Shown one piece after another: positions 12,464-35,925 of a stretch of 35,925 nt of DNA. This DNA comes from Bacteroidia bacterium (lineage in GTDB: Bacteria; Bacteroidota; Bacteroidia; AKYH767-A; 2013-40CM-41-45). The notes beneath the pieces are model-generated. The model did not search any database, was not told the DNA's origin, and saw nothing but the letters and a program-made list of their open reading frames with translations. The translations under genes were made by a program, and so were the position numbers. The DNA is taken from contig DATDOJ010000264.1 in NCBI GenBank assembly GCA_035293345.1, positions 1 through 35,925 of the forward strand. The letters are read 5' to 3'. Each line of letters opens with the position of its first letter. Positions within the stretch are counted from its first letter, which is position 1.

Positions 12464-12497
12464 ACGTCCTCCTGTAAACCGGAGGACGTTTCTTTTT
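12464..12497. terminator. intrinsic terminator between convergent genes
   Basis: Perfect 9-bp stem ACGTCCTCC (12464..12472) / GGAGGACGT (12481..12489) with loop TGTAAACC, followed by TTTCTTTTT. Confidence 0.75.
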
Positions 12498-13345
12498 CAC
12501 TTTGAAGCTGCATTTTTCTTTTCTGCTTCTTCTTCAAACTCCCTGATGTGTTTTGTGAAATAATCCAATGAAGAGCTGAAATTCTCTTGGGTAATATGCT
12601 CACCATAACAGGTGCAGTAATAGGGAAAATCATGGTCCCCTATAATGCTTGATAAGTGAGACGTCTTGAAACATTCCATATCAAAAATGCGGGGTCTTAA
12701 ATACCTTTTCGTGCCGAGCAGGTTTTCTTTCTCCATTAACTGAACGGATTGCCTCAGGAAAGCCAAAGGGATTCTAAGCCAAACAAAGTTCACAGGAACC
12801 GATGTTATACGGAAATCCCTGTCAGCAAGCAACAGCATTCCCGGCAGCACGTTGTCGAGTTGAAGCGGCAATGATTTAGTCAAAGGAATGTTGTCGATAA
12901 ATCTCCTGAAGTGTGCACTATCTTCAATCCCGGTAACCGTGCACATGATGGTAAACATTTTTCCCGCAGGATAAACTGCTGTATTGTGCTTATACGAAGT
13001 GGATTTTTCTGAAGGCCATTCAAACAAAATATTTCTTTGTTCGCGGACTTTGTCCCAAAGGGCTGAAAAACATTTATCCGACCAGAGTTTCAGCCCGGCA
13101 AAATCAGTACATACAGCATCAGACAAAGATGGTTGAAGACAAGAGCGGATATGGCGTCCTTCAAAATAGGTGTGCACTTCGCAATGTGTGCCCTTCCATA
13201 CAACAGAATGAACGCGCTGGCCATCCATTTCATAGTCAGCGGTGAGGATGTTGTTTTCAAAACAGATACTCGGTTCTTTCAGAGTTCCGTAGCCGAGGTA
13301 AAGGGGAAGTTCTCTCTCCTCGCCAAACTGAATCATGTAACTCAT
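12497..13345 (-). CDS. hypothetical protein (282 aa), no recognisable domain
   Basis: Long ATG-started ORF with no competing frame, no signal peptide and no TM segment. It contains several Cys/His-containing patches (THCEVHTYFEGRH, DHDFPYYCTCYGEH). I cannot place it in a family. Confidence 0.7.
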   Translation of the reverse strand: MSYMIQFGEERELPLYLGYGTLKEPSICFENNILTADYEMDGQRVHSVVWKGTHCEVHTYFEGRHIRSCLQPSLSDAVCTDFAGLKLWSDKCFSALWDKVREQRNILFEWPSEKSTSYKHNTAVYPAGKMFTIMCTVTGIEDSAHFRRFIDNIPLTKSLPLQLDNVLPGMLLLADRDFRITSVPVNFVWLRIPLAFLRQSVQLMEKENLLGTKRYLRPRIFDMECFKTSHLSSIIGDHDFPYYCTCYGEHITQENFSSSLDYFTKHIREFEEEAEKKNAASK

Positions 13346-13639
13346 AGGTAAAAGTTTTACAGGATGAATAAATCACTCTGCACCATGAGCGCTGAAAAAT
13401 AAATGCAGAAACGCGGGTGAAAAATTTCCCGAGATTTTTTTGTTCCGCTGAGCGGAGCCGCATTGTTTTGGCACCGTTGGTTTCTCTAACCCGGTTGCCG
13501 ACCTTTTTCAGGTACTCTTAATGCAGGCACAAATATAAAAGCAATTTTTCTTTTGACAAACAGGCTTCTGAAAAACTTTTTGTCAGAGGGCAAACATGAA
13601 AGCGATTCTTCCGTAAGAATTGAACAGATAATAAAGAAT

Positions 13640-16176: not shown

Positions 16177-18831
16177 TTAACTACCTAACTCTGTCACGGA
16201 TGAAACTCTTTTATAAATGACATCATCAAAATTCTCGAAGTGCGCTATTCCGCAATCAATTTTCATTTGTTCGCTTGGTCGCAATTGCTCATCCTTTGAT
16301 TTTGTTTCTGCAACAAAATAAATTCTCTTTTCATTTTTAAACACCACTGCCCAGTCAGGGCGATACTTTCCGATTGGGGTATTAATTTCAAACTTATTAG
16401 GCAGTTTGAAATAGAATTCGATTTGCTCACTGCTCTCGCAATCTTTTGCAAATTGATTTTCTACTTTACTGTCAAGAGGGCAATAGTTTTCATAAATTGT
16501 TTTGTCAGTGTCTTTCACAGTTTGAGTGAAATCATCAATGTAAATTTCAATGTCGCTGTCATCAAACAGAGTCATTTCATAAATCTTGCCTCCGATTTTC
16601 TCATATTTAATTCCGTCAATCATTAATTGGTTTAACTGTTCTTTGATTTTTGAAACAACATTGTCCATAAACATTTGTGGGTTTAGTAATAACTCTTTTA
16701 ATCGTTTGGAAGTTTTAAGAATTTCAAAAATGGTGCTTCGTGTCAATTCTGTTTTGCTTTGTATGTAAGCAAGTGAATCAGGAATTTCAAATTGAACTCC
16801 AAAGCTATCGTCTGCACTATCACTTATTAATTGCCCATCTATCCCCTCTTCCGTAATCAATACTTTTTTCTTTGTTGACCTGATGGATGGTTTTTTTGTT
16901 TCATCCATTTTGCTTACTGCATTTGCGGAAAGTGTAATGAGTTTGGCAGTATCGTAGCTGACATTGTATTTTGTTTGATGTCTTATCTTTTCCCAAATCC
17001 GTAGGAACTTCGGATCTGCCTCAAACCCTTTTCTGTAATTTACTTTCTTCTTATCATTTAAATTTTTTATCCTGCCTGTAAATTCTACACCGCAATCTCT
17101 TTCTATTTCCTCTTGTAAACCTTTCGCATAATCTTCAAATCTTTCGTTTGCAATAACAGTCAACTTATTCAAATTCCTGTCCTTTTCTCTATCTCCATTT
17201 TGATTTACGCAAATGCGCAAACCTCTTCCTATTGTTTGTCTTTTATCTCTTTCTGTATTTATTTCTCTCAATGTGCAAATCTGAAATACATTAGGATTAT
17301 CCCAGCCTTCTTTTAATGCTGAGTGACTAAATATAAAACGAAGCGGAACATTGACATCAAGCAACCTTTCTTTGTCCTGCATAATGAGTTTGTATGTATC
17401 ATCATCTAATTGTGTTTCTCCTCCAGTATCTTTAAATCTTCCCTTGTTGTCCTGAGAGAAATAACCATTGTGCAGTTCCTCGACTGAATAAGTAATCAAA
17501 TCTTTGTACGCAGGTTTGGAAATTTCCTTTTGATAAATTTCTTCAAACCATTGTGCAAATTTTCCCTTTAGAGAATTTCCGCTGGAATCATAGTCACGAT
17601 AATTTTTTACCTTGTCAATGAAGAAAAGAGAAAGGACTTTTATTCCTTTCTCTTTATACTTCTTTTCCTTTTTCAAATGTTCCTCGACTGTTTTGGCAAT
17701 CATGAAACGCATCACCTCATCATTCATTCCGCCTTGCGTTTCACCCTTCTGTAAAACCATTCCACTCGGACTTAATTCAATTTGTTCATTGCCAAAATCA
17801 AATTCAGATATTCTTAACCCATCGTATTTTTCATTTTTGTTTGATAATAGAAACAGGTCGTCTTTCCCAACATTTGCTGTAACGGATTTTCTTTTTATCC
17901 CGTCTTCTGTGGCAACATCTATTTTTATTTTTGCTTTGATTGAATTACCTATCCGGGTGATGTTTTCTAGTTGAAGAAACGGGCTGTTGAAATCATTCTC
18001 ACTTACCACAGAATCAACTTCTATCTGCTTAACTAACCCTAAGTCATATGCTTTCACAGGATTTAGTGAATACATCAGATTATAAAGATTAGCATGTGTT
18101 GCAGAATAACGAAGCGTACAAAGAGGTTCTAAATTTTGAATTGCCTTTTTCCGAATGTCTGTTTCCATATTCTGCGGTTCGTCAATAATGACAATCGGCT
18201 TACAGCTTTGAATAAATTCAATTGGTCTTTTTCCATAGGTGTTATCCCTTTGCTGATTGATAATGTTAGCATCCTTGGCAAAGGAATCAATATTGATTAC
18301 TATAATCTGCACGCTGTTAGCCGATGCAAATCCTTTCAGGTTGGAAACCTTCCTGCTGTCGTAAACATCATAACTGAGCGGAACTTTATTGTAAAGATTT
18401 TGCAAATGCTCGTGGGTGATTTTAAGATTTTTCAAAACGCCTTCACGAATAGCAACTGATGGAACAACTATTACAAACTTTTTGAATCCATATAGCTTAT
18501 TCAATTCATAAATGGTACGGAGATAGACATAGGTCTTTCCCGTACCTGTTTCCATTTCAACAGAAAAGTTCCAACCATGCGCAAGAATTTCCTCTCGCGT
18601 CAAGATATTCAGAGCGTTATTCTTCTGAATGTGCTGAATGTTTTCTGTTAACTGGTCAAGGCGGGAAAAATCAATCTTGTTTCCGAAACCATTTTCAGAG
18701 AGCATTGCTCCGGGTTGTGTAAAAGAAAATTCAAAGTCGCCACTGCTCAGCGACTGTCCTTCAAAAATATCCGTGATAGCCCTGATGGCATCAATCTGAT
18801 ATTCCTGCTGGCTGTCAAATTGTAATTTCAT
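16177..18831 (-). CDS. res: Type III restriction-modification system, restriction/helicase subunit (Res)
   Basis: Typical Res N-terminus (MKLQFDSQQEYQIDAIRAITDIFEGQ), SF2 helicase motif I METGTGKTYVY, motif II VIIDEPQNM, and an endonuclease-like C-terminal region (KYRPDWAVVF...YFVAETK). The start overlaps the mod stop by 4 nt (ATGA). Confidence 0.9.
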   Translation of the reverse strand: MKLQFDSQQEYQIDAIRAITDIFEGQSLSSGDFEFSFTQPGAMLSENGFGNKIDFSRLDQLTENIQHIQKNNALNILTREEILAHGWNFSVEMETGTGKTYVYLRTIYELNKLYGFKKFVIVVPSVAIREGVLKNLKITHEHLQNLYNKVPLSYDVYDSRKVSNLKGFASANSVQIIVINIDSFAKDANIINQQRDNTYGKRPIEFIQSCKPIVIIDEPQNMETDIRKKAIQNLEPLCTLRYSATHANLYNLMYSLNPVKAYDLGLVKQIEVDSVVSENDFNSPFLQLENITRIGNSIKAKIKIDVATEDGIKRKSVTANVGKDDLFLLSNKNEKYDGLRISEFDFGNEQIELSPSGMVLQKGETQGGMNDEVMRFMIAKTVEEHLKKEKKYKEKGIKVLSLFFIDKVKNYRDYDSSGNSLKGKFAQWFEEIYQKEISKPAYKDLITYSVEELHNGYFSQDNKGRFKDTGGETQLDDDTYKLIMQDKERLLDVNVPLRFIFSHSALKEGWDNPNVFQICTLREINTERDKRQTIGRGLRICVNQNGDREKDRNLNKLTVIANERFEDYAKGLQEEIERDCGVEFTGRIKNLNDKKKVNYRKGFEADPKFLRIWEKIRHQTKYNVSYDTAKLITLSANAVSKMDETKKPSIRSTKKKVLITEEGIDGQLISDSADDSFGVQFEIPDSLAYIQSKTELTRSTIFEILKTSKRLKELLLNPQMFMDNVVSKIKEQLNQLMIDGIKYEKIGGKIYEMTLFDDSDIEIYIDDFTQTVKDTDKTIYENYCPLDSKVENQFAKDCESSEQIEFYFKLPNKFEINTPIGKYRPDWAVVFKNEKRIYFVAETKSKDEQLRPSEQMKIDCGIAHFENFDDVIYKRVSSVTELGS

Positions 18832-20771
18832 ATCGTCTTAAAATCTATTTCAGCATCACGCATCTGCAACATGGTATTCGTTTTCAGTTGGTCATTGCCT
18901 GTGAAAAGTTTATCAAGCGTAATTACTTTTTTTGGTTTAGCAGAAATGATTTGAGTAATTGTTTTCTGATTCATTTCTTCTAAAGCAATGATAAGTTCTC
19001 CGTCATTTACGGAATAATATTTTTCTTTAGCTTCAACATTATCCGTGAGTAAGCTGCCTGCTTTGAGCATTAGCTCATAAAGCATATTTTCTTTTTCGCT
19101 TCCTTCTTTTACCGGCTTGGTGAAAACCTCTAATTGTTGTTCTAAGTTTTCTTCCGTGATTTCATTGCCTCTCCATATCTTGAAATTGGACGATGCGAGT
19201 TTGAAAACTTTGAAACCTAAATCAAGATTTTTGTTTTCGTCCTCATTCAAAAGATTTTTGCTTTCTTTTATTTCTTTTTCAATTTTCTTTATTACTCTCC
19301 TGATTCTTTCCTTTGAAATGTCAGCGATAGTTTTGTAACCTGCTTTGTATGCCTCACTGTTTTCACCACACAATTCAGGCAATTGAACTAAAATAAATTT
19401 TCTGTTGCCTCCATCTTCTTTGTTCTTTTCTAAAACTGCTTGGGCAGTAGTTCCTGAACCCCCAAAGAAATCAAGAACTATATCGTCATCTTCAATTGAT
19501 AAGTTTATAATTTGTTTTACAAGTGCAACTGGTTTAGGAAAGTCAAAAACATTTTCAAATCCTAATTCTCTTAATTCTACTGTTCCAGTTTCAGTTAAGA
19601 AACTATTATCATCCCAAATTGATTTTGGCTTATACGTTGTCTTTCTATATTTTTCATAAATTCCAAATGAACCATCGCCTTTCTTCTTTCCTATTAAATT
19701 ACTTTGAAGTGTATGTTCGTTAATGTTTGCAATACACTTTTTTTGTCCCCAACGCCAACAGCTTTCCTTCTTCTCCGAATTGAGAGGCAATACTTCAAGA
19801 GCATATTTTTCATTCTTCACCAAACTAACTGGTGAAAATCCATCCTTGTCAGATATTTTTGGATTTACATAAACAGGATAAAAAAGATTTGGTCTATTAT
19901 GTTTGCCAAACTTCGGGTTCCTATTTCTTAATTCCCTTATATTATAATTTCCAATATCATCTTTGAGATTCAAGTCATTATTCTCTTCATCTTTTTCTAA
20001 TTCATTTAAATCCGTCTCAAAATTTTTAGTGTAAACAAGGATGTATTCGTGAGTTTTCGCAATTTGTTTAAAGGTTTGTCCTCTGCTATTTGACCTTACA
20101 ATAACTTGAGCAAAGAAATTCTCCTCTCCAAAAATTTCATTCATCAACAACCGAAGGTTGTGAACTTCATTATCATCAATGTGAACGAAAACAACTCCAT
20201 CATCTGTCAATAAATTTTTTGCTAAGAACAAACGGGGATACATCATGCTTAACCAATTGCTGTGAAAGTGTCCGCTGTCTTTGCTATTCTTCCTGAAGAA
20301 CCCTTCCTTCATTAAATAACCTTCTTCGTCTTTTTCGCCAATTCGCTTTTGATATTCTTCTTTACTTTCTTTAAAACTGTCGGGGTAAATAAAACTGTCG
20401 TTACCTGTATTGTAAGGAGGGTCAATTTCAACAACCTTTACTTTTCCGTAATATGCCTTCTGCAAAACTTTCAGCACTTCCAAATTTTCTCCTTCAATAA
20501 AAACGTTTTCTGTTTTGTCAAAGTTTATGGATTCTTGCTCAGTTGGTTTTAAAGTAGCGGTTGTGGGTTGCTGCAACACTTTAAAGGCGTCTGTCTTTCC
20601 CGCCCAGTTCAAAACGTAACGCTCATTGAGGAACTCAAGATTTTCTTTTCCAAGAGTTGCCTGAAGTTTTTCCCAATCAATTTTTCCTTCCGTAATTGCT
20701 TCAGGAAAAAGTTGTTTCAGTTTTTCTAACTGGTCTTGAAGTATGTCTAATGATTTACCGAGGTCGCTCAT
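18828..20771 (-). CDS. mod: Type III restriction-modification system, N6-adenine DNA methyltransferase subunit (Mod)
   Basis: Catalytic motif IV EIDPPYNTGNDSFIY and SAM-binding motif I VLDFFGGSGTTAQAV, in beta-class order with a variable target-recognition region between them. Gene order mod-res with translational coupling. Confidence 0.92.
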   Translation of the reverse strand: MSDLGKSLDILQDQLEKLKQLFPEAITEGKIDWEKLQATLGKENLEFLNERYVLNWAGKTDAFKVLQQPTTATLKPTEQESINFDKTENVFIEGENLEVLKVLQKAYYGKVKVVEIDPPYNTGNDSFIYPDSFKESKEEYQKRIGEKDEEGYLMKEGFFRKNSKDSGHFHSNWLSMMYPRLFLAKNLLTDDGVVFVHIDDNEVHNLRLLMNEIFGEENFFAQVIVRSNSRGQTFKQIAKTHEYILVYTKNFETDLNELEKDEENNDLNLKDDIGNYNIRELRNRNPKFGKHNRPNLFYPVYVNPKISDKDGFSPVSLVKNEKYALEVLPLNSEKKESCWRWGQKKCIANINEHTLQSNLIGKKKGDGSFGIYEKYRKTTYKPKSIWDDNSFLTETGTVELRELGFENVFDFPKPVALVKQIINLSIEDDDIVLDFFGGSGTTAQAVLEKNKEDGGNRKFILVQLPELCGENSEAYKAGYKTIADISKERIRRVIKKIEKEIKESKNLLNEDENKNLDLGFKVFKLASSNFKIWRGNEITEENLEQQLEVFTKPVKEGSEKENMLYELMLKAGSLLTDNVEAKEKYYSVNDGELIIALEEMNQKTITQIISAKPKKVITLDKLFTGNDQLKTNTMLQMRDAEIDFKTI

Positions 20772-21154: not shown

Positions 21155-21433
21155 AACCCTGCCGGAGAAAGGCAGGGTTGTTTTTCTTTCATGTGTACCT
21201 CTGCCCATTGCAGGCAGGGTTACTTCTTCTTAAAACATAGGTCTGCCGGAGTTCGGCAGGGTTACAATTGCTTAAAAGATAGCCCTGCTTGTCACGAGCA
21301 GGGTTACATCTGTCTAAAAGACAGGTCTGCCGATGGCCGGCAGGGTTACATTTTCCTTAATCCTAACTCTGCTTATCGCTGGCAGGGGTATCTCTGACTT
21401 AAACATGACTCTGTCGATGGCGGGCGGGATTAC
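21155..21433 (+). ncRNA. array of seven tandem ~42-bp hairpin units (candidate multi-hairpin ncRNA or structured leader; function unknown)
   Basis: Unit consensus is cTTAAAAgAnAGgt-CTGCCg-(5-7 nt loop)-cGGCAG-GGTTAC.
Stems by unit:
- U1: AACCCTGCC/GGCAGGGTT, 21155-21179.
- U2: CTGCC/GGCAG, 21201-21217.
- U3: CTGCCG/CGGCAG, 21243-21259.
- U4: CCCTGCT/AGCAGGG, 21283-21303.
- U5: CTGCCG/CGGCAG, 21327-21343.
- U6: 21367-21387, with G-U pairs.
- U7: 21411-21427, degenerate.
The strand call rests only on the downstream + strand terminator-like hairpin. Confidence 0.5.
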
Positions 21434-21451
21434 TTTTCTTTCAGATTTGCT

Positions 21452-21482
21452 TCTGTTCATGAAGAACAGATATATATTTTTT
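21452..21482 (+). terminator. terminator-like hairpin closing the hairpin array
   Basis: TCTGTTC (21452..21458), loop ATGAA, GAACAGA (21464..21470), then TATATATTTTTT. The stem is AT-rich, so it is only moderately stable. Confidence 0.45.
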
Positions 21483-21547
21483 AAAGAGGTAACGTTTTGA
21501 GGGGGAAGTGCATTAATACTATAGGAGTATTCATAAAACCAAAGACC

Positions 21548-24746: not shown

Positions 24747-25631
24747 ATGGCAAAAGAAAAAATAATCCCATCTTATGATTTGTACAAAACCCTTGGCGAT
24801 GCATTGGGTTTTGAATTCTGCAAGCTGGAGGAAGCATATAATCCTTACGATGCCACGCTGCCGCACAGGCATAATTATTATGAGATTTTATTTTTCAACG
24901 AAAGCGGTGGCAGCCACGAAATTGATTTCAACTCCTTTCCAATACATAAGAACTCGCTGCATTTTATTTCGCCTGAACAGGTTCATCTGCTCAGGCGGGA
25001 TAAGCATGTGAGCGGCTATGTGATATCTTTCTCAAAAGATTTTTGCTACGAAGAAACTGCAGGAATAGAGTTCATTGACAGCTTTCCGTTTTTCAATAAT
25101 CCCTATGCAGCGCCAATCATTCGGCTCAAAGCAGGAGAGAAAAAAATTATAATGGAAGTAATTGAGAAGATTAATTCAGAATATTTTTCTTCGGGTGAAG
25201 ACAAGGCAAATGTGCTGTCAGCGTACCTCACTATTTTACTTATCGCTGCAAAACGACTCTATAAGCCGCAGAATGTTTCCGGAAAAATTATGCCTCAGCG
25301 CTCAGAGCTTACGCGCAAATTCAAGCTGGAGGTGGAAAATAATTTCATGAAAATTAAATCGGTGAATGAATATGCGGGCATGCTTAACATTTCTTCCGGT
25401 CACCTGAATGACACCGTTCATCACGACACCGGCAGAACTGCAAGTGAAATTATCCATGAGCGGATTATCCTTGAAGCGAAGCGACTTCTGTATCGTTCAG
25501 AAAAAAGCGTGAAAGAAATTGCCTACGCACTCGGTTATGATGACCCGTCTTACTTTGTAAAGTTTTTCAAATCACATGCTGACGAAACGCCTGAAAATTT
25601 CCGCAGGCACATCCGCGAAAAGTATCACTGA
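24747..25631 (+). CDS. AraC family transcriptional regulator
   Basis: N-terminal cupin-like sensor region (PHRHNYYEILFF) and a C-terminal double HTH typical of AraC/XylS (SVNEYAGMLNISSGHLNDTV ... SVKEIAYALGYDDPSYFVKFFK). Confidence 0.9.
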   Translation: MAKEKIIPSYDLYKTLGDALGFEFCKLEEAYNPYDATLPHRHNYYEILFFNESGGSHEIDFNSFPIHKNSLHFISPEQVHLLRRDKHVSGYVISFSKDFCYEETAGIEFIDSFPFFNNPYAAPIIRLKAGEKKIIMEVIEKINSEYFSSGEDKANVLSAYLTILLIAAKRLYKPQNVSGKIMPQRSELTRKFKLEVENNFMKIKSVNEYAGMLNISSGHLNDTVHHDTGRTASEIIHERIILEAKRLLYRSEKSVKEIAYALGYDDPSYFVKFFKSHADETPENFRRHIREKYH

Positions 25632-27181: not shown

Positions 27182-28024
27182 TCACTCCCCTGCCGCTTTC
27201 AGTTTTGCCAGTTGCATAAGCTGCAATGCGCGCGCGCTCGGCACAAACTGCTGAAACGCACTTCGCTGCATCAATCCTTTTCTGCGCATGAGTATCATGA
27301 GCTTTCCCAATCCCCCGCTCGAATAGCCGGTGAGCTTTTGCAACTCTTCATACCTGCCGCTGCCTTTGTTATAGAAATGAATCAGCAGCCGCGCTGCCCC
27401 CTCGCGTGCCGAATCGCGCGAGCGCTGGAATATTTGCTTCTCAAGCACTGCCGCAAGCATATAAATATTTTGGTCTGATGAATTTATCGTTTGGGGAAGG
27501 GAAGAAACGGGTTCATTTGCTCCCATGGTTTGCTCAAGAGCAAGATGAACCGATTGCTTCGATGCAGTTTCCTTTTCCGAAGCGGGAAGAATATTTTCAT
27601 TATGTGGAATTGTTGATAAGGAATCGGACGAAACCACTTCATTCGTTCCACTCTCCTTTTGAGAAGGGGATAAAATGGGTTCGTTCATTCCACTTTCCTT
27701 TTTGGGAGTGGGCGAAATGGACTCATTCATTCCCTTTTCCTTTTTGGAATCGGATGAAATGAACTCATTCATTCCGCTTTCCTTTTGCAGAGTGGATGAA
27801 ATCAACTCATTTGTCCCGATTTCCTTTTGAGGATTGGATGGATACAGTTGAATTATCCCACTCTCCTGCGATGGATTGGAAGAAACAGGATTATTTCCCC
27901 CTGTTTGATTTCCGGCACGGGTATTATTCAACTTAAGCATATCAATTTGTTCCAGCAGTACGGATATAATCTTGCGTAACTGTACAATTTCATTTTGCAA
28001 AGCGGATATATCGGGAGCATCCAT
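27182..28024 (-). CDS. coiled-coil / tandem 14-aa repeat / possible winged-helix DNA-binding protein
   Basis: N-terminal heptad segment ISALQNEIVQLRKIISVLLEQIDMLKL. Five 14-aa repeats xxxxKE(S/I/K)G(M/T)NExIS. The C-terminal ~90 aa resembles a MarR-like wHTH (ARLLIHFYNKGSGRYEELQKLTGYSSGGLGKLMILMRRKGLMQRS). TACATTTG, a -7 box on the minus strand, is at 28073..28080. Confidence 0.75.
   Translation of the reverse strand: MDAPDISALQNEIVQLRKIISVLLEQIDMLKLNNTRAGNQTGGNNPVSSNPSQESGIIQLYPSNPQKEIGTNELISSTLQKESGMNEFISSDSKKEKGMNESISPTPKKESGMNEPILSPSQKESGTNEVVSSDSLSTIPHNENILPASEKETASKQSVHLALEQTMGANEPVSSLPQTINSSDQNIYMLAAVLEKQIFQRSRDSAREGAARLLIHFYNKGSGRYEELQKLTGYSSGGLGKLMILMRRKGLMQRSAFQQFVPSARALQLMQLAKLKAAGE
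27621..27830. repeat. five tandem 42-bp repeats inside the coding sequence
   Basis: Units start at about 27621, 27663, 27705, 27747 and 27789. An example unit is GAATCGGATGAAATGAACTCATTCATTCCGCTTTCCTTTTGC. They encode the 14-aa protein repeats and also create the spurious antisense ORF 27406..27762. Confidence 0.9.
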
Positions 28025-28191: not shown

Positions 28192-31100
28192 CTATTCTTT
28201 CTTAATCACTCTCACAAAACCGTGATATGATTTCTTGTCGGGCGTGTTGAGGATATAATAATAAGTGTCGTCATTCACTTCGGCAGCATCCCAGTTGTTC
28301 AGGTATTTGTCCGCTTTAAACACAAGCATTCCCCAGCGGTTAAATATTTCGAGAGCGGAGTTTGCGGGCAATCCCTCAATCACAAAATAGTCGTTGTAGC
28401 CGGGAGAGTTGGGTCTGGGAGTGAACACGTTCGGGATGACAAAGTCGGGGAATAAAAGAATGAGCGTGTCCGTTGCTGCATTGCAGGCATTGGCGGAGTG
28501 AAGCACAAGATAAATGAAGCCGCTGTTGTAATCCGTTTGGCTCGGATGATAGACAGCATTGAGCGAGAAGGAATCGGGAGTGAATGTTCCCGAGCCGGTG
28601 GTTGTCCACCAGCCGCCACCTGCCCCTGTCACCGTTCCGGCAATCGTTGCTGTTGCACCGCGGTTCACGGTTTGGTCAGGTCCTGCATATACACTGAGGA
28701 AGGAGTTCACTGCAACAATAATAGTGTCGCTTTGGTTGGTGCAGATGTTTCCTGTGGTTGTGAGAATAAGCGTTACCGTTCCTGCTGCAATGTCAGCAGC
28801 ACCGGGGATATATGTGGCATTGAGTGTTTGCGCGTTAGGGATAAATGTTCCGTCACCAAGAGTTGTCCATATTCCTCCTCCTGCATTCTGTGTTATTCCG
28901 TTAAGCACTAATGAATCTATATTGCAGATGGCAGTGTCGTTTCCGGCAATGGCAACGCCCCACGGATTTACAAATACTCTGACGCTGTCAGAAGCTGAAC
29001 ATCCGGTGGCATTCGTTACGGTAACAAAGTATATTGTGGTTAGCGCGGGAGAAACAATAATGGATGATGTGGTGTCATTGCCCGGTGTCCATAGATAGGT
29101 AACACCACCGGCTGCCGTTAATGTGGCGCTGTCGCCAAAGCAAATCGTTGTATCGGAAGTTATTGTCACTATGGGGAGAGGAACTATGGTGAGTGTGACA
29201 AACGCTGTGTCGTTGGGACAGGGAGCATTGGCAACAACCATGTAGAGAATGATTATGCCCGTGTCCGCAGGCGAGGGCGTGTAAATGGTTGTGTCATTAT
29301 TCAGGTCGCTGAATATGCCGCTGCCTGAAGTGAACCAGGAAAGATTTGCCGTTGATGCATCACCGTACAATTGTATCGGTTGACTTACGCAGATGACAGT
29401 ATCGGTTGGCGTAGCTGTTGCAACAGGTTTCGGGTTAATGAAAACGTTGTATGATACCGGCAAGCCGGTGCATCCATTTGCCGAAACCTCCACGATGGTC
29501 AATGAGCCGGAAGGCGGAGCGCCCCACGTTACAGTCACGCTGTTCGAACTGTCATTCGGACTCGTGATTGTTCCGTTATTAATTGTCCAGAGATAATAAG
29601 AACCCGCTGTGGGATTGACGCCATACGTAACTCCCGTGTCGCCTTCGCAAACAAGCGTGCTTCCACCGCTTAACGTTGTATTCGGGCGAGGGTTAATGAC
29701 GATGTTTGTGATTAAAGCACTTCCCGTGCAGCCGAAAGAATCTGTTTCCGAAACGGTGATGCTTCCACCGCTACCGAATCCCCAGGTCACCGTGATGGTG
29801 TCTCCGTTTTGCGTGAACAACCCTCCCGTAACAATCCAGTTGTATGTTGAGCCGGGTGTGTTGCCCACATAATAGACAGAGACATCATATTCGCAGACCG
29901 TGTCCGGACCGGTCAATATAAGAGGAGCAGGAAGAGGATGCACCACCACATTGAATGTGTCGGAAACTCCAATACATCCGAATGCATTCATCTCGGTGAC
30001 AATCACGGTTTGATTTCCGGGAGTTGTCCATTGAATATCCATTGTGTCATTTCCCTGCGCACCGGGAACTCCGCTTGAGACAACCCATGTATATATACTT
30101 CCCGCAGTTGCAGGAGATGCTATGTATTGACCGAATTCATTCTGGCAAAGCGTATCGGTTCCCGCAATTGTTATTGCAACAGGAGAAGGATTGATAGTGA
30201 CATTTAAGATTGACGTGCTTCCCATACATCCGAAGAAATTATATTCGGTGACGGAAACAGTTCCGCTGCCTGCTGCTCCCCAGTTCACCGTAATTTGATT
30301 CGACCCATTGCCGCTTGCAATTGTTCCACCTGTCACAGTCCATGAATAAACAGAACCGGCATTATTGGTTACGGAATACACTGCGCTGCTGCCTTCGCAT
30401 ACGGTGTCGGGTCCGCTGATTACAGAAGTTACAGGAAGAGGAATAACTGTTATCTGAACCGTTGCGATTGCATCAGGACAGGGAGGATTGCTCACCGTCA
30501 TGGTCAATGTGACGAACGGTACGTCTGCACTTCCGGTTGTGTATGTCGGAGATGCTGAAGTTGGATTACTGAATGTTCCGTTGCCTGATGTTGTCCAGAG
30601 AATGGTTCCGTTAGTTGCTGTCCCGTTCAACTGAACATTTCCGCCAAGGCAAACCGTATCCTGAACCGCAGTGGCGCTTGCCGTTGGCGTTCCGTTAATT
30701 GTTACTGTTAAAGTTTGCGGAGCACCGGGGCATCCGGATGAATTCACTTCAACAACAGTGATGGTTGCCGTTCCGGGAAGTCCCCAGTCAATCGTCACAG
30801 AGTTTGTTCCCTGTCCGAAAGTTATGTTTCCGTTTCCGGCAACAGACCAGTTGTATGTTGAACCGGCAGTCGGAGGAACGGAGTAAACACTTCCGAGTGT
30901 TCCTTCGCACACAAGCGTGGGTCCTGTTATCGGTGGTGTTATGGGAACAGGGTTAATGACTACATTTAATATTACAGCAGTATCAGAACAACCCACAGCA
31001 TTTGTTTCGACAACAGTAATTGTTCCGCTTCCCGGAGCGCCCCAGGTGACGTTGATGTTGCTTCCCGTTCCTGTGAGAGGAAGCCCCCCTATCACCGTCC

Positions 31101-34100
31101 ATGCATACGTTGAACCGGCAACATTGGTCACGGAATAATTGGCGCTGCTTCCCGCGCAGACGGTGTCCGGTCCTGTGATGACCGATGTGTTCGGTAAAGG
31201 ATTGATGGTAACATTCAGCACTACCGGTGCTCCTGCGCATCCGAAAGAATTTGTCTCGACAACAGTAACCGTTCCTCCGCCTGCGCTGCCCCAGTCAACA
31301 AAGATGGTGTCGTTGCCCTGACCGCTTGCGATGGTTCCGCCTGTTACTGTCCATGTGAATGTTGAACCCGCACTTCCCGATGTGGTGTACATCTGCCCGA
31401 GAACATTTTCACAAACACTTGCTGCGCCATTAATGGATGATGTGACAGGAACAGGATTTACTGTTACAACAACGGTGTCTGTATCGCTGCAGCTTCCTGT
31501 TGTTCCGATAACGATGAACTGATACGGTGAACCTGATGCAGGCAACGGAGGACTTACAACAGTGGATGAAGTTGTATCACCGTTACTCCATTGGTATGAC
31601 AGCGCACCGTTTGCCGTTAATGTCAGTGCATCTCCTTCGCAAATCGTCTGGTTGCCGCTGGTTGTCAAAACCACACCTGCTACAATCGGAATCGTTGTTG
31701 AAAGAGTATCAACGCATCCTGTTACTCCGTCTGTAACAATGACTATGAACGTATAATTGCCGACTACCGGTGGATACGTTGTTGTGACGGATGATGAATC
31801 CAAATTAGATGATGTGATATAAATATAATCAGGAGACAAATACCACTCGTATGTCGAGCCGGCACCCGCTCCTGTAATTGTGAGTATCGCCTGCAGCAGC
31901 GGGTCGGTCGTACAAAGCGCTCCCGGATTTCCTGTGAGTGTTGGCGGGGGATAAACATTCACCGTGGCAGTAACGGTTGAATCGCATCCTGATGCAGCAG
32001 CAACAGTAAGAGTAAACACTGTGGTTGTGGTTACCGTTGCCGTTGTAATTAATAATGTGTCATTTGCTATCGGAACAGGTGGCGCTGAAGTCCATAGATA
32101 TGTTGTTCCCGGGTTGGTGTCGCTGCCTGTTCCGTCAAGAGTGACCACTGTAGCAACACCGTCACAAATAATATTCGGAAGCACGGAAGCAACTGCCGCA
32201 GGATTAGTAGTGGCATTGGCGGAAACCGAAACGCTGTCCGAACATCCTGTGGATGTATCCGTCACGACAAGAGTAAACACATCACTCGTGCAGATGATAG
32301 CAGATGTAACTAATGACGATGGCGAACCAATCGGATTTCCTCCCGCGCTCGTCCAGAGATAAACCATTCCCGGTGTGCTGCCGGTGCCATTCAGCGAAAC
32401 CGTGTCGCATCCGCAGAAAGGAGGAATGGGCGATGCCACTGCAACAGGAAGCGGGTTGACATTCACCGTTGCGGTTAGCTGCTGCGTACATGTTCCTGTT
32501 GTTCCTAATACAGTAAATGTTGTTGTCGCTGTCGGAGAGACATTCTGAGAAGCAAGAGTTGAATCGGCAAACGCATAAGCCGGACTTGCCGTCCATGCAT
32601 AAGTTGTCGCGCCTGTGGCTGTGATGGTAACGGATTGCCCCGCACAAATGGTGAACGGTCCGTTTATTCCCATCGTCAAACCCGGCTGGATGGTGAAGGA
32701 TGTTGAAAGCGTATCCACGCATCCTGTTACTCCGTCTGTGACAATAACCGTGAAGTTGTATGTGGCGGGAACTCCAGAAGGATATGTTGCGGTAACAGAC
32801 GATGAGTCAACGTTAGAAGAAGTGATGTATGAATAATCAGCCGACAGGTACCACTCATAAGTGGAACCTGCACCCGCACCCGTCACCGTGAATGTTGATG
32901 TGAGTGGATTAGGGTCAGTTGCACACAACACCGAAGGCGGTGAGTTAAGTGTTGGCGGAGGGAACACGTTTAAGTCAACACAATCGGGAGTTGAAACACA
33001 GCCGAGTGAATCGGTGACCACCAGACAGTAAGTGACATTTGCAGAAACTATAGTTGTCGGATTTGCAATTGTCGAATCACTTAATCCAGTTCCGGGAGTC
33101 CATGCATAGGTGTAAGGCGGAGTACCGCTCGATGCGCTTCCGTTTAGTTGCACCGAAGAATACCTGCAAACAGTGGTATCATTTCCCGCATTGGCAATTG
33201 GCAGAGGAGTAATCACAACTGAAGTTGTATCCGTGGCAGTACAGCCGTTCGCATCGGTGATAGTGATGGTGAATACATAAGGACCACCGGGCGGCAATCC
33301 TGAAACACTCGTGTTCTGACATGTGGGGCATGCAATAGTTCCCGGACCCGACCACTGATATGAAACAGGAGCTGTTGCATTGCTGTCGGTTGATGTTAAT
33401 GACACGGCAGTGCCCTGGCAAACAGGCGATGGTGAAGCGGCAGTTACAACAGGAGGAGGAAGAAGATTGACAACGATGGTAGTTGTATCCGGTCCGCATG
33501 CTCCGTCAACGATGAGCGTCACGGTGAATGGAGGAATACCTACAAAGATGTGTGTAGGATTTTGCAGGTTGGAAGTATTGGACGGTCCCGATAGCGGGTC
33601 ACCGAAATCCCAAGACCAGTTCACGATATTCGGATTGGTGAAAGGCGGGTCGGGCAGAACACTGGCGCTCCCGGTGAAAGAAACGGGCTGCCCTACGCAT
33701 GTGGTCACAGGTGAATAGTTAATCGCAGGAAACAAATCCTGTATCGTAATTTCCTGTGTAAAAATTGTAGTGCCGCAGGCATTGGAGGCACGCAGCGAAA
33801 TTTCATAGGTGCCTATAGAGTCGTAGCAAACTGTCGTATCGGCTCCCGAAGCAGGAAGATAAGGACATGTTGTGCACAACCGCCAACTGTAGGTTACCGG
33901 TGTGCCATGAGGAATGGTGGTGTTCTGCAGTGTGATGCATGCCGGCACGCAGGCAACAATAGGGTTAGCATTGAAACTGGTTGACGGGCGGGCAATGATG
34001 CCGTCATCGGGAGTTGTGGCGGTGATGGTGAACTGTTCCGGATTGCCTGCTTCTCCGTCAACCATGATGTAATAGACCGTGCCCGGTGTAGTGGCAAAAG

Positions 34101-34455
34101 AAATGGTTGCCGAACCGGCAGGACCAAATCCGGTATCGCATGCACCGGCAATGGGAACGAGCGAGCCGCAGCTTCCTGTATAAGCCGAGATGCTTAGACC
34201 TGCGGCACTGTCAATGTTAGTAAGTGTGATAATCGCTGTTCCGTTGTTGATGCCAAGAATGGTAAACCACATGCTTCGCTGAACAACTCCGTCACCGCAT
34301 GGAAGCGCAGGGTCACTGGCAACCGTTGTTGCCCCTATCGTTGTGGAAGAAACCGAACTGCCTCCGCAAAGCGCGGTTGCATTAGCGCAATCGTCCTGTG
34401 CCCGGACCGCTGCTACCGTACAGATTAAAAAAAGAAATACCGTGAGAAATTTCAT
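28192..34455 (-). CDS. giant (2087 aa) cell-surface adhesin-like protein with Ig/PKD-like repeats and a T9SS type B (gliding motility-associated) C-terminal domain
   Basis: Signal peptide MKFLTVFLFLICTVAAVRAQ. Dozens of ~80-aa T/S/G/V-rich Ig-like modules with paired cysteines (..C.G..V.L.A.G...Y.W..). The C-terminus PNVFTPRPNSPGYNDYFVIEGLPANSALEIFNRWGMLVFKADKYLNNWDA...YYYIL...GFVRVIKKE matches the gliding-motility C-terminal domain pattern. Confidence 0.93.
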   Translation of the reverse strand: MKFLTVFLFLICTVAAVRAQDDCANATALCGGSSVSSTTIGATTVASDPALPCGDGVVQRSMWFTILGINNGTAIITLTNIDSAAGLSISAYTGSCGSLVPIAGACDTGFGPAGSATISFATTPGTVYYIMVDGEAGNPEQFTITATTPDDGIIARPSTSFNANPIVACVPACITLQNTTIPHGTPVTYSWRLCTTCPYLPASGADTTVCYDSIGTYEISLRASNACGTTIFTQEITIQDLFPAINYSPVTTCVGQPVSFTGSASVLPDPPFTNPNIVNWSWDFGDPLSGPSNTSNLQNPTHIFVGIPPFTVTLIVDGACGPDTTTIVVNLLPPPVVTAASPSPVCQGTAVSLTSTDSNATAPVSYQWSGPGTIACPTCQNTSVSGLPPGGPYVFTITITDANGCTATDTTSVVITPLPIANAGNDTTVCRYSSVQLNGSASSGTPPYTYAWTPGTGLSDSTIANPTTIVSANVTYCLVVTDSLGCVSTPDCVDLNVFPPPTLNSPPSVLCATDPNPLTSTFTVTGAGAGSTYEWYLSADYSYITSSNVDSSSVTATYPSGVPATYNFTVIVTDGVTGCVDTLSTSFTIQPGLTMGINGPFTICAGQSVTITATGATTYAWTASPAYAFADSTLASQNVSPTATTTFTVLGTTGTCTQQLTATVNVNPLPVAVASPIPPFCGCDTVSLNGTGSTPGMVYLWTSAGGNPIGSPSSLVTSAIICTSDVFTLVVTDTSTGCSDSVSVSANATTNPAAVASVLPNIICDGVATVVTLDGTGSDTNPGTTYLWTSAPPVPIANDTLLITTATVTTTTVFTLTVAAASGCDSTVTATVNVYPPPTLTGNPGALCTTDPLLQAILTITGAGAGSTYEWYLSPDYIYITSSNLDSSSVTTTYPPVVGNYTFIVIVTDGVTGCVDTLSTTIPIVAGVVLTTSGNQTICEGDALTLTANGALSYQWSNGDTTSSTVVSPPLPASGSPYQFIVIGTTGSCSDTDTVVVTVNPVPVTSSINGAASVCENVLGQMYTTSGSAGSTFTWTVTGGTIASGQGNDTIFVDWGSAGGGTVTVVETNSFGCAGAPVVLNVTINPLPNTSVITGPDTVCAGSSANYSVTNVAGSTYAWTVIGGLPLTGTGSNINVTWGAPGSGTITVVETNAVGCSDTAVILNVVINPVPITPPITGPTLVCEGTLGSVYSVPPTAGSTYNWSVAGNGNITFGQGTNSVTIDWGLPGTATITVVEVNSSGCPGAPQTLTVTINGTPTASATAVQDTVCLGGNVQLNGTATNGTILWTTSGNGTFSNPTSASPTYTTGSADVPFVTLTMTVSNPPCPDAIATVQITVIPLPVTSVISGPDTVCEGSSAVYSVTNNAGSVYSWTVTGGTIASGNGSNQITVNWGAAGSGTVSVTEYNFFGCMGSTSILNVTINPSPVAITIAGTDTLCQNEFGQYIASPATAGSIYTWVVSSGVPGAQGNDTMDIQWTTPGNQTVIVTEMNAFGCIGVSDTFNVVVHPLPAPLILTGPDTVCEYDVSVYYVGNTPGSTYNWIVTGGLFTQNGDTITVTWGFGSGGSITVSETDSFGCTGSALITNIVINPRPNTTLSGGSTLVCEGDTGVTYGVNPTAGSYYLWTINNGTITSPNDSSNSVTVTWGAPPSGSLTIVEVSANGCTGLPVSYNVFINPKPVATATPTDTVICVSQPIQLYGDASTANLSWFTSGSGIFSDLNNDTTIYTPSPADTGIIILYMVVANAPCPNDTAFVTLTIVPLPIVTITSDTTICFGDSATLTAAGGVTYLWTPGNDTTSSIIVSPALTTIYFVTVTNATGCSASDSVRVFVNPWGVAIAGNDTAICNIDSLVLNGITQNAGGGIWTTLGDGTFIPNAQTLNATYIPGAADIAAGTVTLILTTTGNICTNQSDTIIVAVNSFLSVYAGPDQTVNRGATATIAGTVTGAGGGWWTTTGSGTFTPDSFSLNAVYHPSQTDYNSGFIYLVLHSANACNAATDTLILLFPDFVIPNVFTPRPNSPGYNDYFVIEGLPANSALEIFNRWGMLVFKADKYLNNWDAAEVNDDTYYYILNTPDKKSYHGFVRVIKKE

Positions 34456-34613
34456 TTATGAAGTTACCCGCTCTGCTGTCGGGTAAACTTATACTAATAA
34501 GAAACTTCAAAAGTTCGCCTTATTCTGCATTTATTCACATGTAAGAATAGATTACTTTTATTTCTAAAATGCTGCAAAAGCTGTCATAGTCAGAAACGCA
34601 ACTACGGGGAGTA

Positions 34614-34895
34614 ATTCCGCTTATGTCAATGTTCATTCCACGTGTGTCAGCAGCGATTTCGCGCTTGTACGATGTCATTCCACGGCTGTAGACAGCGATT
34701 CCACGCCTGTACGATGTAATTCCACGGCTGCCGATATTGATTCCGCGCTTGTCAGCATCAATTCATCAACTGCCGAAAGTGTTGCCGCGGCTGTCGGAAA
34801 GAATGCTTCACGTGCATTGCTTTATTCCCCGATTGTCGAGGGTTTATTCCTGGCGGGCAGACCAGATGCAATTCATGCGGGTTTGAACCGCGGGA
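34614..34895. repeat. 21-bp-phased tandem array (~11-13 units, head motif ATTCCRCG) in the divergent intergenic region
   Basis: Unit heads fall at 34614, 34635, 34656, 34677, 34698, 34719, 34740, 34761, 34782, 34803 and 34824, in exact 21-bp steps; the units at 34782 and 34803 are degenerate. Looser units follow at 34846 and 34871. Alternate units resemble each other (ATTCCACGGCTGT... versus ATT(C/T)C(A/G)CGC(C/T)TGTACGATG...), giving a 42-bp higher-order period. Confidence 0.85.
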
Positions 34896-35005
34896 TTATC
34901 AGGACCCCCGGTGAAAAACCGCAATGGAAATTACAATGCTTTTTATTCGCTAAAAATTACCTTTGTATTCCAAAACAATTAGTTGACAGCAAATGAAAAC
35001 AAGCT

Positions 35006-35925
35006 ATGCGAAACGACCACACGGAAAAATCTCTCCGTGACGAAATCGAAAAGTCGGAGCGGTCGCTGAAAATTTTTAACGACACGAAAAAGGCGCTGCA
35101 AACCGAAGAACGGTTTGTGAATTTTTTCAAGGGCTACAATCAGAGCTCTGTGGAATCATTCATAACTTCTTACGCGCAGCAAAAAGCATTCTGGTATTCA
35201 TACAGCGATTCGGTTGCGAAGAATAAAATGCATGAGCGCAGCATCTATCGCAACAATGCCGTTAATGCGCTGAAAGAAATTTATGTCAAAAAACTTTTTG
35301 ACCTGAAATGCCGGTGGGTGGCGGGGGAAATGGATTTGCCCGGAGTCGAAACATCGCATAATTTCCACCGGCTGGAAAAAAAACCTGAACTAGGCACAGC
35401 CATTAAGCCCATCACGGAAGAGGAAGTGAATTGCTACATTGCTTTTCTCGACTACAAAAAAGAAAATCCTGAAAAGGACTACGATGACCCGGGCACTAAT
35501 CTTGCGCTGCATTTTTATCATCAGCATAAGTCAACCGCGCTGGAGGACTTCGGGGATGAAGAATACATCCCCGTATGGTTCATGTTTTATGACAGGCGCT
35601 TCGGCACAGACGAGTTGCTGAAGTTGCCGACCACGCGCGTAGACATGGAATGTGATTTACACGACATCTGGCTGGAACACATTTTTCCGAAAACGCTGAC
35701 GGAGGAACAACTGAAAACCGTTACTCCTCATCTGAACCGCACCAAACGTATGGAGCTGAAACAGGACAAGCAGAAACGCGAAGCATATTTTGCAGAACAA
35801 AACCGCCAGTATGAAGAGCAGAAAAAAAATTCACCGAAGTATGAGCACATGAGCACGTATGACCGGAAAAAAATGAAAACCCTTGTGGCGCTGATTGAAA
35901 CACCGGAAGTGCAGAAGTATTACAG
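35006..35925 (+). CDS. hypothetical protein, N-terminal 306 aa (gene runs off the right edge)
   Basis: The ATG at 35006 opens a frame with no stop to the window end: MRNDHTEKSLRDEIEKSERSLKIFNDTKKALQTEERFVNFFKGYNQSS...WFMFYDRRFGTDELLKLPTTRVDMECDLHDIWLEHIF.... It is absent from the ORF track because it is open-ended. No recognisable domain. Confidence 0.7.
   Translation, partial: MRNDHTEKSLRDEIEKSERSLKIFNDTKKALQTEERFVNFFKGYNQSSVESFITSYAQQKAFWYSYSDSVAKNKMHERSIYRNNAVNALKEIYVKKLFDLKCRWVAGEMDLPGVETSHNFHRLEKKPELGTAIKPITEEEVNCYIAFLDYKKENPEKDYDDPGTNLALHFYHQHKSTALEDFGDEEYIPVWFMFYDRRFGTDELLKLPTTRVDMECDLHDIWLEHIFPKTLTEEQLKTVTPHLNRTKRMELKQDKQKREAYFAEQNRQYEEQKKNSPKYEHMSTYDRKKMKTLVALIETPEVQKYY

Follow-up and report, generated by a model that had tools for sequence, protein, structure and literature searches.

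A partly decayed array of 21-bp repeats with a conserved bipartite core in a Bacteroidota intergenic spacer fits a described but unexplained class of bacterial tandem repeats

Tandem repeats of constant length in bacteria come in only two sizes, 20-21 nucleotides (with a few related repeats of 40-41 nucleotides) and 52 nucleotides, according to the survey by Subirana and Messeguer (PMC8161180). The 20-21-nucleotide class is described there as generally non-coding and present in many bacterial groups, with several equal-length families per genome, each of which has a short sequence found in all its repeats (PMC8161180). Its function is unexplained, its length amounts to two turns of the helix, and the same survey puts forward two proposals, either the polymerisation of a protein on the DNA or the production of small RNAs from the transcribed repeats (PMC8161180). 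Here, we analyse an array of eleven abutting 21-bp units from a Bacteroidia bacterium, located at positions 34614-34844 of a stretch of DNA (hereafter the window) that spans bases 1 to 35,925 of a soil-metagenome contig of 37,183 bp (DATDOJ010000264.1; ENA ERZ27254861, k141_865704). Judged by its layout, the array fits the 20-21-nucleotide class as a further example. It shares with it a constant 21-nucleotide unit with a 42-nucleotide higher order, an intergenic and non-coding location, and a short core present in every repeat while the rest is variable (78% vs 28% identity). The window also holds two equal-length arrays unrelated in sequence (330-455 and 34614-34844), and this within 36 kb only. 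The differences are of three kinds. The class was described mainly in Bacillus and Paenibacillus, together with Cyanobacteria and Actinobacteria, and the accessible part of the survey makes no mention of Bacteroidota (PMC8161180). The families are reported there to be species-specific (PMC8161180), whereas the core described here seems common to several Bacteroidota genera. Finally, the array of the window is unusually decayed compared with the published examples, and its core is thereby exposed.

The periodicity of the array is strict and far beyond chance. At lags 21, 42 and 63, base autocorrelation reaches 0.418, 0.516 and 0.488, respectively, with values of 0.24-0.26 at lags 20 and 22, and the three peaks lie above the maxima of all 2000 shuffles over lags 5-69 (mean 0.312, top 0.375). 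Tandem Repeats Finder (TRF) reports a period of 21 with 65% matches and a period of 42 with 79% matches. A previous reading of the DNA, made from its sequence only, had proposed that eleven units fall on an exact 21-bp lattice and that alternate units resemble each other. Layout, autocorrelation and TRF bear out the lattice; the 42-bp super-period is confirmed by TRF and by the tails of the units, which are identical at 0.43 of positions at lag 2 vs 0.21 at lag 1. The same reading was slightly generous in counting nine clearly conserved ATTCCRCG heads, since eight are found with at most one mismatch: five are exact (34635, 34677, 34698, 34719 and 34740) and three have one mismatch (34614, 34656 and 34824), to which can be added one head with two mismatches (34782) and two poor ones (34761 and 34803). 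The two looser units that it saw extending the array are there as part of a longer degenerate tail, which opens with an ATTCC shifted by one base at 34846 and reaches approximately 34907. When ATTCCRCGNNTG is searched at up to one mismatch, 15 sites are found in the window, a number reached by none of 100 shuffles, and the eight sites that are inside the array are all in phase. The array has a G+C content of 50%, the flanking spacer 33-35%, and within the spacer G+C is highest in the degenerate extension (0.56). Exact direct repeats inside the array reach 12 nucleotides at most. The diverged units abut without spacers, which rules out a CRISPR array. Logan contigs from four separate soil metagenome runs have identical sequence on both sides of the array and inside it. 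They end between 34677 and 34754, at 3-6x depth, with no alternative joints among them, and the copy number at that place is thus the one given by the k141 assembly.

The conservation of the units is selective. At the same offset in each unit we find the core A1 T2 T3 C4 C5 n C7 G8 n n T11 G12 Y13 M14 (ATTCCnCG-nn-TGYM), in which T2, C7, T11 and G12 are invariant in 11/11 units. Comparing the units in pairs gives an identity of 0.78 for the 11 core positions and of 0.28, which is near random, for the other 10. Since the tails have been randomised while the core was kept, neutral decay is insufficient to account for the pattern, and something recognises the core; the comparison of the units supports a head that would behave as a selected recognition site. 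The paralogous arrays of Flaviaesturariibacter have the same split between core and tail, with no differences at unit positions 11-13, four at positions 1-7 and 22 at the remaining 11, which again is not explained by neutral decay. Measured between centres, ~9.5 bp separate the two blocks of the core, and successive units are spaced at 21 bp. The blocks are therefore about one helical turn from each other, the units exactly two, and all cores lie on the same side of the duplex. The two-turn phasing and same-face geometry put forward by the sequence-only reading are in this respect sound, and they match the proposal made for the class in its survey (PMC8161180). Given the contrast in identity between core and tail, its suggestion of an array of proteins along one face of the DNA is also a reasonable one.

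The array is located in a 550-bp spacer (34456-35005) that separates a divergent pair of genes (Table 1). Its distance to the ATG of the adhesin gene (34455) is 159-440 nucleotides and that to the ATG at 35006 is 111-392 nucleotides, both as previously noted. The assignment of the adhesin to the type IX secretion system (T9SS) also holds, given its PKD repeats and CHU_C type IX signal in Pfam, and type IX secretion C-terminal domains were found by Pfam on many genes of the window. We searched the spacer for promoters with TAnnTTTG, which we take to be the -7 consensus of the Bacteroidetes sigma-A. The exact match, TACCTTTG, is likely the core promoter of the gene encoding the 428-amino-acid protein and starts ~110 bp from the end of the array. 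On the other strand, AACTTTTG and TAAGTTTA are candidate promoters of the adhesin gene, weak predicted sites beyond which the edge of the array is ~100 bp away. By these predictions, the array likely sits between the two core promoters, at ~100-130 bp from each, and both of them are directed away from it.

Table 1. Coordinates of the array, of its flanking genes and of other features of the window.
Feature	Position	Strand	Evidence or remark
Eleven 21-bp units on the exact lattice 34614 + 21n (n = 0-10), with 42-bp higher-order repeat	34614..34844	.	
Unit starts	34614, 34635, 34656, 34677, 34698, 34719, 34740, 34761, 34782, 34803, 34824		
Template of the bipartite core in unit 1: positions 1-5 ATTCC, 7-8 CG, 11-14 TGYM	34614..34627	+	Per-position counts, information content
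Degenerate extension of the array: ATTCC offset by +1 at 34846, looser units after it, fading by ~34907	34845..34907	.	
Flanking gene: 2087-amino-acid PKD-repeat surface protein (adhesin) with CHU_C type IX secretion signal	28192..34455	-	Pfam
Flanking gene: conserved hypothetical protein, 428 amino acids on the full contig, first of a conserved two-gene unit	35006..35925	+	
Predicted -7 promoter box TACCTTTG, exact match to TAnnTTTG	34958..34965	+	41 nucleotides before the ATG at 35006
Two candidate -7-like boxes with one mismatch: AACTTTTG from 34515, TAAGTTTA from 34491	34484..34515	-	30-60 nucleotides before the adhesin ATG
280-amino-acid protein with N-terminal coiled coil and invariant ~90-residue C-terminal domain resembling a helix-turn-helix (HTH)	27182-28024	-	
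AraC-family protein gene, candidate regulator	24747-25631		Pfam
Complete Type III restriction-modification system: mod 18828-20771, res 16177-18831	16177-20771	-	Very strong PADLOC matches
SAM-I/IV riboswitch	13426-13529	-	53 bits (gathering score 41)

We favour, with evenly balanced confidence, the view that the array is a non-coding minisatellite, old and in part decayed, whose selected cores would be bound by a putative DNA-binding protein. Its last amplification would have taken place in double units of 42 bp. Each unit would be a site for one monomer with two reading heads placed in adjacent major grooves, in a geometry that, by analogy, could resemble that of regulators of the AraC/XylS or LytTR type. 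Neighbouring copies of the protein would then touch along one face of the helix, and the resulting phased nucleoprotein stretch would occupy the centre of the divergent promoter region. If the adhesin gene or the gene for the 428-amino-acid protein were affected, this would be a local by-product, by insulation, occlusion or altered DNA topology, and no dedicated switch would be involved. We infer that such a protein reads the core as double-stranded DNA; which protein it might be and which regulatory consequence, if any, would follow are the more conjectural parts of this view.

The core seems likely to be common to several Bacteroidota genera, with part of the sharing possibly due to chance according to a control scan. 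We scanned one genome per species (596 gigabases) for two heads spaced by 21 bp and retrieved 41 loci. The control, a scrambled head of equal composition at the same spacing, retrieved 23. Long arrays with the same head were found in Emticicia (three loci, 16-20 units), Mariniphaga, Segetibacter, Flaviaesturariibacter (two loci), Odoribacteraceae, Tannerella, two uncultured genomes, Kapabacteria, and some Acidobacteriota and Verrucomicrobiota. Arrays of 13-19 units were also among those of the scrambled head, and came from two Bacteroidales genomes, an Oscillochloris and a gammaproteobacterium. If we count the genomes that have five units or more, the real head is found in 17 (among them 7 of Bacteroidota, along with Kapabacteria and an unclassified one) and the scrambled head in 6 (2 of Bacteroidota). 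Since the scrambled head also yields long 21-bp arrays, the 21-bp period is a generic one and is not tied to the motif. Together with the two other arrays present in the window, this weakens the earlier claim that a dozen phased sites are exceptional, far more than a normal operator would have. Two Bacteroidales genomes retrieved by the control illustrate the point, as one of them, the metagenome-assembled genome Gx481_bin90, has a family of 21-bp arrays (CTTACAYGCYGTGGTAYGCAT) of 13-18 units at five loci or more (L150, L152, L160, L163 and L149), and the other an array of 18 units; these, together with L145, show that Bacteroidales genomes can be rich in 21-bp arrays of unrelated sequence. 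At the positions that the search pattern leaves unforced, the arrays most similar to that of the window are those of Flaviaesturariibacter, Emticicia, Segetibacter and Mariniphaga. The extension TGTCA is common to the window and to three of these four arrays, for which we estimate a chance of ~3 in 1000. A family of this motif spanning all Bacteria is rejected in view of the scrambled control and of arrays of other periods, and what is left as plausible is a Bacteroidota subfamily. From these comparisons, it is plausible that a subfamily sharing the core survives the controls.

Several arguments weigh against a protein-bound array with a selected core. First, the enrichment of the real head over the control is only ~3-fold overall, and within Bacteroidota it is 7-9 vs 2 genomes, so that much of the same-core family seen across phyla could be the product of chance in so large a database. 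Second, among the matches listed by scans with variable gaps, the head also belongs to arrays with periods of 19, 26 and 30, which means that the head and the 21-bp spacing are not strictly coupled. The commonest periods of long arrays among the matches listed are 21 and 30, for real and scrambled heads alike. Third, the Kapabacteria arrays look coding, and periods divisible by three dominate both the real and the control scans (among the matches listed), by which a coding origin of some of the arrays cannot be dismissed. Finally, the conservation of the core could stem from a mechanism of amplification that requires the core, and not from a function for the host.

The latter argument leads to the main rival explanation, a selfish or neutral minisatellite. 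Slippage, unequal exchange or an enzyme that nicks or recombines at the core would generate the repeats, and molecular drive would keep the core in the absence of any function for the host. We regard this as unlikely, even if it is the competitor that fares best. Arrays with the same core are indeed spread over unrelated intergenic regions. Their neighbours, as identified by Pfam, include aspS, tadA, hppD, a GH10 xylanase, an alpha/beta hydrolase, a transporter of the major facilitator superfamily, UbiD and a urea transporter with an M23 peptidase domain, and one array lies between convergent genes. When all proteins of the window were compared with the array loci by tblastn, no relevant homologue turned up next to the arrays. 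Since the functions of the neighbours are also unrelated, we reject a link between the array and any conserved neighbour gene. The Emticicia arrays, that of locus L014 and those of Kapabacteria have a homogeneity of 86-96%, a sign of recent expansion. The Flaviaesturariibacter array belongs to an element, 515 bp long or longer, that occurs at two loci or more with a difference of one unit. A mobile precedent within the phylum is BrickBuilt, a 23-nucleotide minisatellite carried by a MITE (miniature inverted-repeat transposable element) of Porphyromonas gingivalis (PMC4596501). Like the array of the window, BrickBuilt is made of strictly intergenic, spacer-free tandem repeats of ~20 nucleotides close to promoters in a member of Bacteroidota, and the likeness drawn extends to its many copies per genome (PMC4596501). 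It differs in the length and sequence of the unit, 23 nucleotides of the unrelated AGAYCATARTATCCTCTCRTRTG, and in its conserved leader and tail, which have terminal inverted repeats and are related to the IS5 family (PMC4596501). The flanks of our array are unique, both in the window and among all fetched loci, and have only weak inverted repeats of 10-14 nucleotides, so that a minisatellite borne by a MITE is rejected for lack of terminal inverted repeats and common flanks. Conserved flanks exist in Flaviaesturariibacter, but not among the three Emticicia arrays, which also speaks against a selfish minisatellite, as does the lack of similarity between the flanks of our array and other loci. 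The age of the array is a further difficulty for this rival, because with random tails and a longest repeat of 12 nucleotides drive should have ended, and the core is still 78% identical.

The Flaviaesturariibacter element deserves a description of its own. Its two copies (L019 rc 2363-2873 and L041 rc 5774-6262) are 86% identical; in each, a conserved leader and a conserved tail enclose a 21-bp array of 13-14 units, whose order is the same in both. They differ by exactly one unit, which shows the gain or loss of units directly.

A second alternative is that of a dedicated cis-regulatory array controlling the adhesin gene, the gene for the 428-amino-acid protein, or both, and bound by a local regulator such as the AraC-family protein or the 280-amino-acid winged-helix-like protein. 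The position between the two predicted promoters would suit an operator. Direct repeats at 21 bp from centre to centre, made of a bipartite element of ~14 bp, are a feature shared with LytTR and AraC/XylS operators, such as the 9-bp repeats of AgrA with a 12-bp spacer, araI1-I2, and TGCA-N6-GGNTA of XylS, where the bipartite element corresponds to one monomer reading two adjacent major grooves. To this match in core and spacing can be added that the AraC-family gene and the protein with the HTH-like C-terminus are encoded within 10 kb. However, operators known for these families contain two sites, seldom three or four, and keep a fixed distance from a single promoter, whereas the array has at least 11 sites and lacks a conserved link to any regulator or target gene. 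No gene of the LytTR family is found in the window. Elsewhere, the genes beside same-core arrays are unrelated, and neither a regulator nor an adhesin is found in the vicinity. The orthologues of the 428-amino-acid protein (47-53% identity) tell the same story, as no array is found upstream of the two with readable upstream DNA (L043 and L044), and the third has an upstream gap of only 100 bp. The link of the array to this gene is accordingly rejected, and these array-free loci are also what one would expect from a selfish repeat. The DNA-binding fold of the 280-amino-acid protein is only a candidate, given that its AlphaFold model has a predicted local distance difference test score (pLDDT) of 47, which is low confidence. 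Dedicated control of the adhesin, as favoured by the sequence-only reading, is thus improbable, and we consider it clearly less credible than a selfish repeat.

The 280-amino-acid protein has no match in Pfam, NCBIfam, PADLOC, PHROGs or the Protein Data Bank. It has five homologues (212-248 and 175 amino acids), which differ in repeat content.

The contingency switch once suggested for this locus is also unlikely. Like contingency loci, the array is a tandem repeat in the promoter region of a surface-protein gene, and the Flaviaesturariibacter array documents an indel of one unit. Such loci need near-identical units, whereas those of the array are 65-79% alike and share no exact repeat longer than 12 nucleotides.

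The third alternative is a transcribed array that acts as RNA, either as a non-coding RNA that sponges a protein or as a precursor of small RNAs, as proposed for the 52-nucleotide repeats of Bacillus. Transcription of the 52-nucleotide class is reported for B. coagulans in the survey (PMC8161180) and in a further article (PMC8625621). In ~6-7 of 10 arrays, the strand of the core is co-directional with the downstream gene. Against this, the array folds no better than shuffled sequences on either strand (z = +1.04 and +0.82), and a search of Rfam gave no family match to the array even at E = 10, on which grounds we reject a structured RNA. A repeat RNA of a type III toxin-antitoxin system (ToxI-like) is rejected for the same two reasons and for the lack of a known toxin family downstream. 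Both flanking predicted promoters are directed away from the array. This orientation and the absence of RNA structure make recognition of the duplex DNA by a protein the simplest reading, and we give an RNA function very little credence.

A cryptic or decayed coding heptad (I-P-R-[LVM]-S-x-x if read from the plus strand, x-x-D-x-R-G-I if read from the minus strand) is highly improbable. The array is non-coding and no gene was called over it. In forward frame 1 the head reads Ile-Pro-Arg-(Leu/Val/Met), with NTG always giving a hydrophobic residue, and the positions at which the core varies (6, 9 and 15) fall on the wobble positions of this frame and of reverse frame 2; this apparent wobble pattern was in part imposed by the N and R positions of the search pattern that we used. 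Frame 1 has a TAG stop at 34689, and the Flaviaesturariibacter and Mariniphaga arrays also have stop codons in it. The sole frame open over the whole array is frame 3, with a stretch of 142 codons that lacks a start codon before 34817. No single frame is open in all of the 15 arrays compared, and open stretches close within a few dozen nucleotides of the edges of the arrays, where we did not find termini resembling those of proteins. The 26 array positions that differ between the Flaviaesturariibacter paralogues are distributed 6/11/9 over the codon positions, with no excess at the third. The stops, the lack of a commonly open frame, the frames ending at the edges and these substitutions lead us to reject a protein-coding heptad for this array, notwithstanding the general dominance of periods that are multiples of three (among the matches listed).

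Iterons of a plasmid or integrative element, or a partition centromere of the ParR-parC kind with its 20-bp repeats, are scarcely credible. Tandem 20-22-bp direct repeats bound cooperatively in a nucleoprotein superstructure are typical of R6K and pPS10 iterons and of type II centromeres such as pSK41 parC (20-bp), and the two-gene unit downstream occurs in variable contexts resembling defence islands. But such sites adjoin rep or parMR, whereas Pfam identifies no gene for Rep, ParM/ParR or ParA/ParB in the vicinity, and the content of the contig, which has housekeeping genes, is chromosomal. Orthologues of the two-gene unit lack arrays, and in Emticicia there are several arrays to a chromosome. 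The iterons mentioned in the sequence-only reading are therefore discarded. Other origins were also considered and rejected. Viral contigs gave only two matches of two units each, on which ground we reject a phage origin. Similarity to tRNA 3' ends, DnaA boxes, promoters of extracytoplasmic function sigma factors or Pho boxes fits neither the sequence nor the spacing of the core. A literature search with the motif string returned primers only. Short arrays with the same head and periods of 19 and 25 bp, in a Streptomyces (L104, 1563-1638) and a Prevotella (L076, rc 4363-4412), directly follow a tRNA gene and its terminator hairpin.

The two-gene unit next to the array encodes the 428-amino-acid protein and a partner of ~377 amino acids (window 35006-35925; L001 3-2178), neither of which is in any family library; the former has no match in Pfam, NCBIfam, PADLOC or PHROGs. 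Homologues of its first gene come from uncultured Bacteroidota, always with the partner gene downstream and in varying contexts. The neighbours of the unit elsewhere include restriction-modification genes, Vsr, a PemK toxin, an AAA ATPase and genes of T9SS cargo, a setting that resembles defence islands.

The window has other repeats. A second non-coding 21-bp array (330-455) has six units of AGTRTnnACTTnTAAGTTATA with a 10-bp palindrome, ACTTATAAGT, and a G+C content of 28%. It is located 63-190 bp upstream of a minus-strand gene starting at 267 and just past the stop codon of a T9SS beta-propeller gene (491-2191), and it looks like a set of phased palindromic operators. Within the latter gene, a coding tandem repeat of 195 bp in 6.4 copies (833-2077) corresponds to the SBBP beta-propeller repeats of its product. 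A non-coding array at 21157-21492 has eight units of 42 nucleotides, each made of a GC-rich hairpin of 6-7 bp (CCCTGCC...GGCAGGG) and, after it, a T-rich tail. No stem pair is lost, two of them have compensatory changes, and the fold is far better than that of shuffled sequence, as it has a z-score of -7.9 relative to shuffles. This array is directly upstream of a gene with an fn3 domain (21497) and divergent from the Type III methylase gene; it is odd to find an array of terminator-like hairpins before a gene in the same direction. A third 42-bp array (27626-27880) is coding, and its 14-residue repeats (QKESGMNExxSSxS) make up a variable linker of the 280-amino-acid protein. The riboswitch listed in Table 1 is upstream of a gene for a protein of 282 amino acids (12497-13345), which has no match in Pfam or NCBIfam.

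The constant-length repeats of 20-21 nucleotides are a published puzzle, in that their length is kept across distant bacteria and their sequence is not. A decayed array is informative in this respect, as it points to the bases that are under selection: a bipartite core of 11 positions, with one helical turn within the units and two between them. For genome annotation, it implies that arrays beside surface-protein genes are not to be taken as gene-specific switches without comparative support. The position of the array between divergent promoters means that an effect on transcription could be tested with reporters. If the core is common to several genera of Bacteroidota, then a conserved trans-acting factor exists. 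One could go further and propose that ATTCCRCG-nn-TGTCA at 21-bp spacing, as found in Chitinophagaceae, Cytophagales (Emticicia) and Marinilabiliales, forms loading platforms for one conserved Bacteroidota protein, a proposal that we put forward as doubtful. If it were true, the putative protein would assemble into a polymer on one face of the helix, the 20-21-nucleotide repeats would be part of a nucleoprotein system that organises the chromosome or insulates promoters, and the array described here would show which bases this system reads.

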